From the NCBI GenBank assembly GCA_000002445.1, contig CP000068.1, positions 1,472,001 through 1,536,000 of the forward strand: 64,000 nucleotides of DNA. Direction: 5' to 3'. The position numbers were made by a program, and so were the translations under genes. The number at the start of each line of letters is the position of its first letter. Within the stretch, counting starts at the first letter, position 1. This stretch comes from Trypanosoma brucei. Lineage: Eukaryota. This document shows, in pieces, positions 53,497 through 53,673 of this stretch. Under the pieces are notes generated by a model. The model did not search any database and was not told the DNA's origin. It worked only from the letters and a program-made list of their open reading frames with translations.

Positions 53497-53673
53497 CTAT
53501 TATTATTATTATTATTATTATTATTATTATTATTATTATTATTATTATTATTATTATTATTATTATTATTATTATTATTATTATTATTATTATTATTATT
53601 ATTATTATTATTATTATTATTATTATTATTATTATTATTATTATTATTATTATTATTATTATTATTATTATTA
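53497..53673 (-). repeat. Uninterrupted (TTA)n tract of about 58 triplets. It is the expanded TAA/TRR portion of a 70-bp repeat.
   Basis: The tract is pure 'tta' for about 175 bp. It is followed directly by the 70-bp core remnant 'ctgcttctattagaatattcctatatgcacacactcacaacactcttctatta'. Confidence 0.9.

Follow-up and report, generated by a model that had tools for sequence, protein, structure and literature searches.

A 176-nt pure TAA tract within a 70-bp repeat of a silent VSG array in Trypanosoma brucei

Is an unusually long run of TTA triplets among the VSG genes of Trypanosoma brucei a real enlargement of a known repeat, and does it matter for the stability of the DNA around it? We addressed this question for one locus in a window of 64,000 nucleotides (the whole stretch of DNA analyzed here, in which all positions are counted from the first base). 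It is very probable that the locus represents a genuine microsatellite expansion in a 70-bp (76-bp) repeat of T. brucei, within a silent VSG array from the subtelomeric DNA of TREU927 or a nearly identical genome, with slippage as its probable origin and with the expanded tract as a predicted preferred site of helix opening. Nothing in the sequence contradicts the structural description of the locus.

A first-pass annotation of this DNA had reported about 175 bp of uninterrupted TTA. Tandem Repeats Finder (TRF) and the raw sequence both gave a perfect period-3 run of 176 nt without a mismatch or indel (58.7 copies, 100% matches, 0% indels, score 352), which reads (TAT/TTA)n on the plus strand and (TAA)58 followed by TA on the minus strand, the sense strand of the VSGs. 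With regard to the extent proposed earlier (53497-53673), the end is correct and the start was placed one base early, position 53497 being occupied by the C of the adjoining CACTTC. When all 64 kb were scanned, 19 further runs of at least 9 nt in the TTA or TAA phase were found, the longest of which measures 16 nt. The tract is 11 times as long as any other TTA-type run in the window.

ORFs of 77-151 aa cross the tract, as they might if the region encoded a low-complexity protein (poly-Ile, poly-Leu, poly-Tyr or poly-Asn). The four homopolymer ORFs found here (Table 1) had already been regarded as spurious, and we likewise give a coding function practically no credence. Four frames are open simultaneously, one of the starts is non-ATG (accepted by the bacterial table only) and another is GTG, and all of these ORFs start and stop in non-coding repeat cores; the coding reading was rejected on these grounds. 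Moreover, the sense-strand frame reads TAA, which is a stop codon. It is only for lack of stop codons in the relevant frames of the repeat that the ORFs exist, and the tract should be masked during annotation so that they are not called as genes.

The identity of the tract becomes apparent from the other repeat units of the window. In canonical units, the segment from ...GAGCAG to the next GGAAAG is 29 nt long and occurs in two variants (TAA TAA CAT TAA TGA TAA TAA TGA TAA TA and TAA TAG TAT AAA TAG TAA TAA TAA TAA TA). This TRR segment measures 32 nt in a dimer at ~58.6 kb and ~42 nt in another at ~48.4 kb, so that normal core-to-core segments of the window comprise ~9-14 triplets (29-42 nt), in good agreement with the ~10-15 triplets previously assumed for a canonical segment. 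The 20 other repeat copies whose boundary could be placed carry between 0 and 10 in-phase TRR triplets, and their longest pure TAA run has five. The tract begins directly after the GCAG of a core and closes with TA before GAAG, as in canonical units, filling the interval up to the (G)GAAG of the next core, and it keeps the 3n+2 register (176 = 58x3+2, as 29 = 9x3+2 and 32 = 10x3+2). The 70-bp repeat is characterised by a conserved GT-rich core (GTGTTGTGAGTGTG) followed by ATATACGAATATTATAAT...GAGCAG. The core upstream of the tract conforms to this pattern, contains the motif CACTCACAACAC at 53705-53716, and can be aligned from end to end (53721 to 53674) with array units and single stubs, from which it differs by a 2-nt insertion and a few substitutions. 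Of the downstream core, only the first ~26 nt are retained. In addition, the tract lies on the same strand as a VSG_B pseudogene, 1.3 kb upstream of its start at 52156, in a genome of the T. brucei group. Alignment thus places the tract inside a 70-bp repeat, as had been proposed, at the canonical TRR position between two cores, and in terms of sequence it is a TRR segment enlarged about six-fold, from 29 to 176 nt. Core and tract together form a unit of ~224 bp (48 and 176 nt, respectively), which exceeds the 75-77 bp of a 70-bp repeat unit.

Since both boundaries coincide with the canonical TRR ends and the 3n+2 length is kept, the segment appears to have grown in place by whole triplets. 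TAA accounts for only ~62% of the triplets in the other TRR segments (68/109, counted by hand; ~38% are non-TAA), and the tract contains no TGA, TAG or CAT interruption among its 58 triplets, which argues against a concatenation of canonical segments; by our own arithmetic, the chance of drawing a 58-triplet all-TAA run from that mix is near 1e-12. Unequal crossing-over between whole repeat units was ruled out as the origin, because the tract contains neither repeat-core sequence nor TGA, TAG or CAT triplets. Most likely, slippage during replication, or repair synthesis out of register, would have added whole triplets in place to a pure TAA seed and so converted a short imperfect TRR segment between two cores into pure (TAA)58.

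The length and purity of the tract might instead have been altered during cloning in E. coli or during assembly, with a true allele that is shorter, longer or heterogeneous. AAT/TTA repeats are known to delete in E. coli plasmids, for example from (AAT)24 to (AAT)8 (PMC3000339), so a clone-derived length could be wrong, and subtelomeric repeat regions are hard to assemble (PMC4858185). However, unique and correctly phased 70-bp-repeat sequence bounds the tract on both sides, and 176 bp is well within capillary reads of ~700 bp (PMC4858185). Tracts of even greater length, among them (TAA)90, were reportedly read directly from cloned DNA by Campbell et al. in 1984. We therefore regard an artefact as unlikely and continue with a genuine expansion.

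The features of the locus are listed in Table 1 in the VSG sense, followed by the ORFs.

Table 1. Features at and around the expanded tract (positions within the window)
Feature	Position	Strand	Basis or description
Orphan VSG C-terminal-domain remnant of a former upstream VSG	54162..54242	-	tblastn with residues 437-463 of VSG 20939..22540 (67% identity, E=7e-5)
VSG 3'-UTR 16-mer copy, 1 mismatch, ~226 bp upstream (VSG sense) of core	53947..53962	-	Motif match
Degenerate TRR-like segment upstream of first core, AACGATAATGATAGTAAAAATAATAGAAATAATA	53722..53755	-	9 in-phase triplets, 4 of them TAA
Complete conserved core of upstream repeat, GAAGAGTGTTGTGAGTGTGTGCATATAGGAATATTCTAATAGAAGCAG	53674..53721	-	Full-length alignment with cores of 75-bp array 1255-2015 and other stubs
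Expanded TRR triplet segment of 70-bp repeat, (TAA)58 + TA	53498..53673	-	TRF; sequence; boundaries GCAG/TAA... and ...TA/GAAG
Truncated second core, GAAGTGCGTTGTGAGTGCATATAGCC	53472..53497	-	Alignment; motif match 53481-53492 with 1 mismatch; repeat similarity stops beyond
AT-rich spacer from repeat to stub, ~1.3 kb, without coding signal	52157..53471	-	Sequence; usual position of VSG upstream spacer
Frameshifted, truncated B-type VSG pseudogene (VSG stub)	51373..52156	-	Pfam, ORFs, three-frame translation
Envelope of homopolymer ORFs (poly-Leu, poly-Ile, poly-Tyr on +; poly-Ile on -)	53362..53817	+	ORF list
Poly-Leu ORF	53362..53817	+	ORF list
Poly-Ile ORF	53400..53777	+	ORF list
Poly-Tyr ORF	53417..53686	+	ORF list
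Poly-Ile ORF	53474..53707	-	ORF list

Upstream of the repeat, the 16-mer copy marks the 3' end of a former VSG. The orphan 3' end at 53947-54242 has no VSG body upstream and abuts an A-rich telomere-like block; it marks an old junction. The spacing between 16-mer and core is shared with ~8 other cassettes, and thus, apart from the tract, the locus is an ordinary cassette boundary. Across ~9 junctions of the window, the 3'-UTR 16-mer precedes the next core by 150-250 bp in the VSG sense (for example, 16-mer/core pairs at 58819/58643, 40403/40218, 35128/34885 and 15546/15296). Downstream of the repeat, an ORF within the spacer (53175..53405, minus strand) has no Pfam match. The tract had been described as lying upstream of a VSG stub, and a truncated VSG_B pseudogene was indeed found 1.3 kb downstream by Pfam, ORFs and translation; 70-bp repeats are usually located ~1.5 kb upstream of VSGs (PMC4858185). 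The stub has a signal-peptide-like N-terminus in one frame (52156 to 51962) and a VSG_B fragment in another (51870 to 51373), which matches Pfam VSG_B at profile positions 83-225 of 352 (E=1.1e-12). The stub lacks a C-terminal domain. Right after the stub, a (TA)11-12 run at 51138-51160 forms the second least stable 50-bp duplex of the window.

ORFs on the minus strand carry the Pfam domains VSG_B, Trypan_glycop and Trypan_glycop_C throughout the window. For the 70-bp core motif, 27 occurrences were counted, compared with 4.65 expected by chance, and 26 of the 27 are on the plus strand; these sites include a 10-unit array of 75-bp repeats at 1255-2015 and single stubs before most VSGs. The VSG domains on the minus strand, together with the core motifs, mark the window, judged from its sequence, as a silent subtelomeric VSG array read in antisense. 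VSG cassettes extend for tens of kb on both sides of the tract and only short degenerate telomere-like tracts occur nearby, which places the locus within an array and not at a telomere. As for the source genome, the VSG at 55509..56969 (minus strand) is identical over 486/486 residues to XP_845141.1 / AAZ11582.1 of T. b. brucei TREU927, and the remaining close matches are T. brucei VSG entries with 99% identity. Beyond TREU927-derived sequences, the homology search gave no close relative of this VSG, the next match being 34% identical. To compare tract length with the corresponding locus of other assemblies or strains, exact-protein look-ups were made; those for the VSGs at 55509, 48764, 59096 and 46155 and for P0001 and P0008 returned no match, and neither did metagenome scans with the locus-specific left junction or with the generic 70-bp core.

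Two further features of the window are worth recording. The ten 75-bp units of the array at 1255-2015 share 94% identity, with two TRR variants alternating; this array is unusually long for an array-internal VSG, the other cassettes of the window having one or two units. A GC-rich island at 16000-20000 (GC 0.55-0.56, compared with ~0.40 elsewhere) contains two long ORFs, 17083..18057 (minus strand) and 19088..20338 (plus strand), without a Pfam match, and may represent an insertion other than a VSG, for example a degenerate retroelement.

The tract had also been said to adjoin telomere-like, A-rich blocks, and telomere-like tracts are in fact present at 54692-54768 and 55202-55261. They belong to the region 54589-55261, in which two copies of a unit (GCTGCATCACTAAAA ... 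GGAGGTGTG ... AAAAATTAATTAGCAG ... AAAATTAACCC) lie ~510 bp apart, each copy ending in degenerate CCCTAA (telomere-like) hexamers at the two positions given. Both units are located just downstream (VSG sense) of the intact A-type VSG 55509..56969 and its 16-mer at 55436-55451. The region has the appearance of a duplicated fossil of telomere-proximal sequence, belonging to a VSG that was once telomeric and is now array-internal. A related block is present at 45540-45730, downstream of VSG 46155..47543 (minus strand) and ~120-310 bp past an exact 16-mer at 45852-45867; it comprises GGGGTTAGGGTGCGCATAACAAAGCAGCCG (compare 54950-54985), a C-rich run and ATAACCCTAAGCC. These related blocks suggest a common telomere-adjacent ancestry for some array VSGs.

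We then considered what structure the tract could adopt. In a nearest-neighbour calculation over 176-bp windows, its duplex has a stability of -0.82 kcal/mol per bp, compared with a mean of -1.32 (sd 0.12) for the whole window and -1.04 for the second-weakest segment, so that the tract is the weakest in 64 kb. Single-strand DNA folding of 53470-53722 gave minimum free energies of -1.3 and -1.8 kcal/mol for the two strands, without a base pair inside the tract, and each of 200 shuffles folded better than the strand itself (z = +2.3 and +3.1). Opening under supercoiling was estimated for 51000-56000 with a simplified single-bubble model of the Benham type, which is only semi-quantitative (it uses naked-DNA parameters and ignores chromatin). 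In this model, the mean opening probability in the tract is 0.05 at sigma -0.03, 0.51 at sigma -0.04 and 0.83 at sigma -0.055, against maxima elsewhere of 0.001, 0.007 and 0.025, respectively. When the tract was shortened in the model to the canonical 29 nt, opening shifted to the AT-rich VSG 3'-UTR near 53980. Taken together, the lack of self-folding in either strand, the weakest duplex and the opening in the model indicate that any non-B form here would be an unwound, unpaired bubble and not a hairpin, cruciform or triplex. Therefore, the earlier suggestion that the tract is long enough to form non-B DNA holds as a predicted bubble and is not supported for self-paired forms.

Being a long pure triplet repeat, the tract might be expected to adopt a structure of the hairpin, slipped-strand, cruciform or triplex type, as the CAG/CTG, CGG or GAA disease repeats do, but the folding results, in which both strands scored worse than every shuffle and formed no base pairs within the tract, leave such structures extremely unlikely. 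H-DNA usually requires a homopurine-homopyrimidine sequence, and the tract, with a mixed strand composition (T, A, A), is not of this kind. The self-paired and triplex readings were rejected on these two grounds. Hairpins and triplexes are both among the in vitro structures reported for AAT/ATT, but the AAT/ATT hairpins cited there were induced by minor-groove ligands (PMC3000339).

An unwound bubble is also what the literature would lead one to expect. TTA·TAA repeats have been assigned a "non-H-bonded" structure (Ohshima 1996, as cited in PMC3467770, PMC6292569, PMC3936766 and PMC6237402), and the (TAA)n/TRR part of the 70-bp repeat has been called helix-destabilising or non-H-bonded (PMC3467770, PMC6292569, PMC3936766). 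By computation, the present tract has the sequence properties of such a structure, namely purity, minimal duplex stability and absence of intrastrand pairing, and the predicted opening is in line with what has been published on TTA·TAA repeats. Mechanistically, no triplet repeat would give a less stable duplex than pure TAA, here 176 bp long, and the separated strands would be unable to self-pair. Where transcription, replication or chromatin remodelling imposes negative superhelical stress, the helix would be expected to open preferentially at the tract, and replication stalling, R-loops or breakage may thereby become somewhat more frequent at the cassette boundary.

Whether such opening has a function is a separate matter. 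A link between non-B DNA and fragility of 70-bp repeats, mentioned in the first-pass annotation, is indeed a published proposal (Ohshima 1996, as cited in later papers). It remains a proposal, and the role of these repeats in fragility is not established even for expression sites, and still less for silent arrays, given that break mapping gave no clear signal inside the BES1 70-bp repeats (PMC10691351) and that the repeats are not needed for low-level gene conversion (PMC4858185). The repeats are also dispensable for mosaic donor choice (PMC13233330), and the data of PMC4858185, by its own statement, do not bear on whether the triplet repeats contribute to DNA instability, as has been proposed.

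The tract could in principle be a functional, selected unwinding or fragile site that raises recombination, R-loops or replication initiation at the cassette, and it might have seeded local rearrangements such as the orphan VSG 3' end, the fossil telomere tracts and the VSG stub. It is the main opening site predicted in 5 kb and the weakest duplex in 64 kb, it lies ~1-1.7 kb from two telomere-like tracts and between two VSG remnants, and R-loops accumulate at 70-bp repeats in both expression sites and silent arrays (PMC6292569, PMC10691351). However, the VSG fragment downstream of it is dead and the array is silent, a setting in which selection for activation is difficult to defend, and TAA length has no experimental link to breakage. 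Two other telomere-like or related places in the window, at 4826 (a weak, trivial 12-nt match) and 45657, are followed by TRR segments of normal length (eight triplets at 45657), so the window gives no support for an association between telomere-like blocks and TAA expansion, with numbers too small for a conclusion. We consider a selected function distinctly improbable.

A stronger version of this idea would hold that long pure TAA tracts in silent arrays are dominant helix-opening fragile points at which array-internal breaks start, and that the present one helped create the orphan VSG 3' end, the truncated VSG and the two fossil units of telomere-proximal sequence, whose TTAGGG tracts are degenerate. 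If this were true, sites of rearrangement and decay in the VSG archive could be predicted from TAA-tract length. That the tract lies close to fossil telomere-proximal sequence and to two VSG remnants hints in this direction. Nevertheless, the block at ~45540-45730 precedes a triplet segment of normal length, and for this reason we rate a rearrangement hotspot as very unlikely. Most probably, the tract arose as a neutral by-product of unstable repeats and not as a selected device.

Taken alone, the tract is of little consequence. It serves as a clean example, from a reference genome, of a 70-bp repeat whose (TAA)n segment varies in length; such segments have been known for about forty years and are still cited on why 70-bp repeats might be unstable. 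The combination of unique flanks, a very long pure tract and nearby canonical short tracts as internal controls makes the locus a convenient natural test site. Questions that could be asked there include the relation of TAA length to R-loops, single-stranded DNA, breaks and recombination in silent arrays, length polymorphism between clones and strains, and the fidelity of assemblies.

Comparison with known systems places the tract in a familiar setting. Canonical 70-bp repeats (Hovel-Miner et al. 2016, PMC4858185) share with it the GT-rich, GC-anchored core, the position relative to the VSG and the TRR component, but their units measure 75-77 bp with ~9-10 mixed TRR triplets, whereas the unit here has ~224 bp and a pure TAA segment. 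Length variation of the AT-rich part between conserved units is itself on record (PMC4858185, citing Aline et al. 1985). The closest counterpart is a (TAA)90 tract with tandem 76-bp repeats on its flanks, reported upstream of a VSG basic-copy gene of T. brucei by Campbell, van Bree & Boothroyd (Nucleic Acids Res 1984;12:2759). That tract has ~90 units and ours 58, the strain and the VSG are reportedly different, and a pseudogene downstream and a truncated second core are found here. In its further architecture, the 1984 locus reportedly resembles the present one, with a core, a long pure (TAA)n and a second core upstream of a VSG and in VSG orientation. Similarly, (TAA)n was noted in the flanks of several intrachromosomal VSG genes (Aline et al., Nucleic Acids Res 1985;13:3161); TAA runs of variable length in the 70-bp-repeat region of chromosome-internal (array) VSGs are reportedly the feature shared with the present locus. 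With these two reports, long (TAA)n between 70/76-bp cores upstream of chromosome-internal VSGs has been known since 1984-85, a precedent that was absent from the first-pass annotation.

In terms of structure, the nearest system is the TTA·TAA repeat studied by Ohshima, Kang, Larson & Wells (J Biol Chem 1996;271:16784). The motif is the same, and the tract here is the easiest predicted unwinding site with no predicted intrastrand pairing; the earlier structure was reportedly obtained with plasmids in vitro and in E. coli, whereas ours is a prediction from sequence for naked DNA. The disease repeats (CAG/CTG, CGG and GAA) resemble the tract in that a pure run grows by whole units once interruptions are lost and may cause problems in replication or transcription. 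Unlike the present tract, which has no predicted self-structure and lies in non-coding DNA of a silent gene array, they form hairpins, quadruplexes or triplexes. With (TAA)58 at 100% purity and cores on both sides, the expansion belongs to the class of (TAA)n-expanded 70-bp repeats described in 1984-85, genuine but ordinary for the T. brucei genome.
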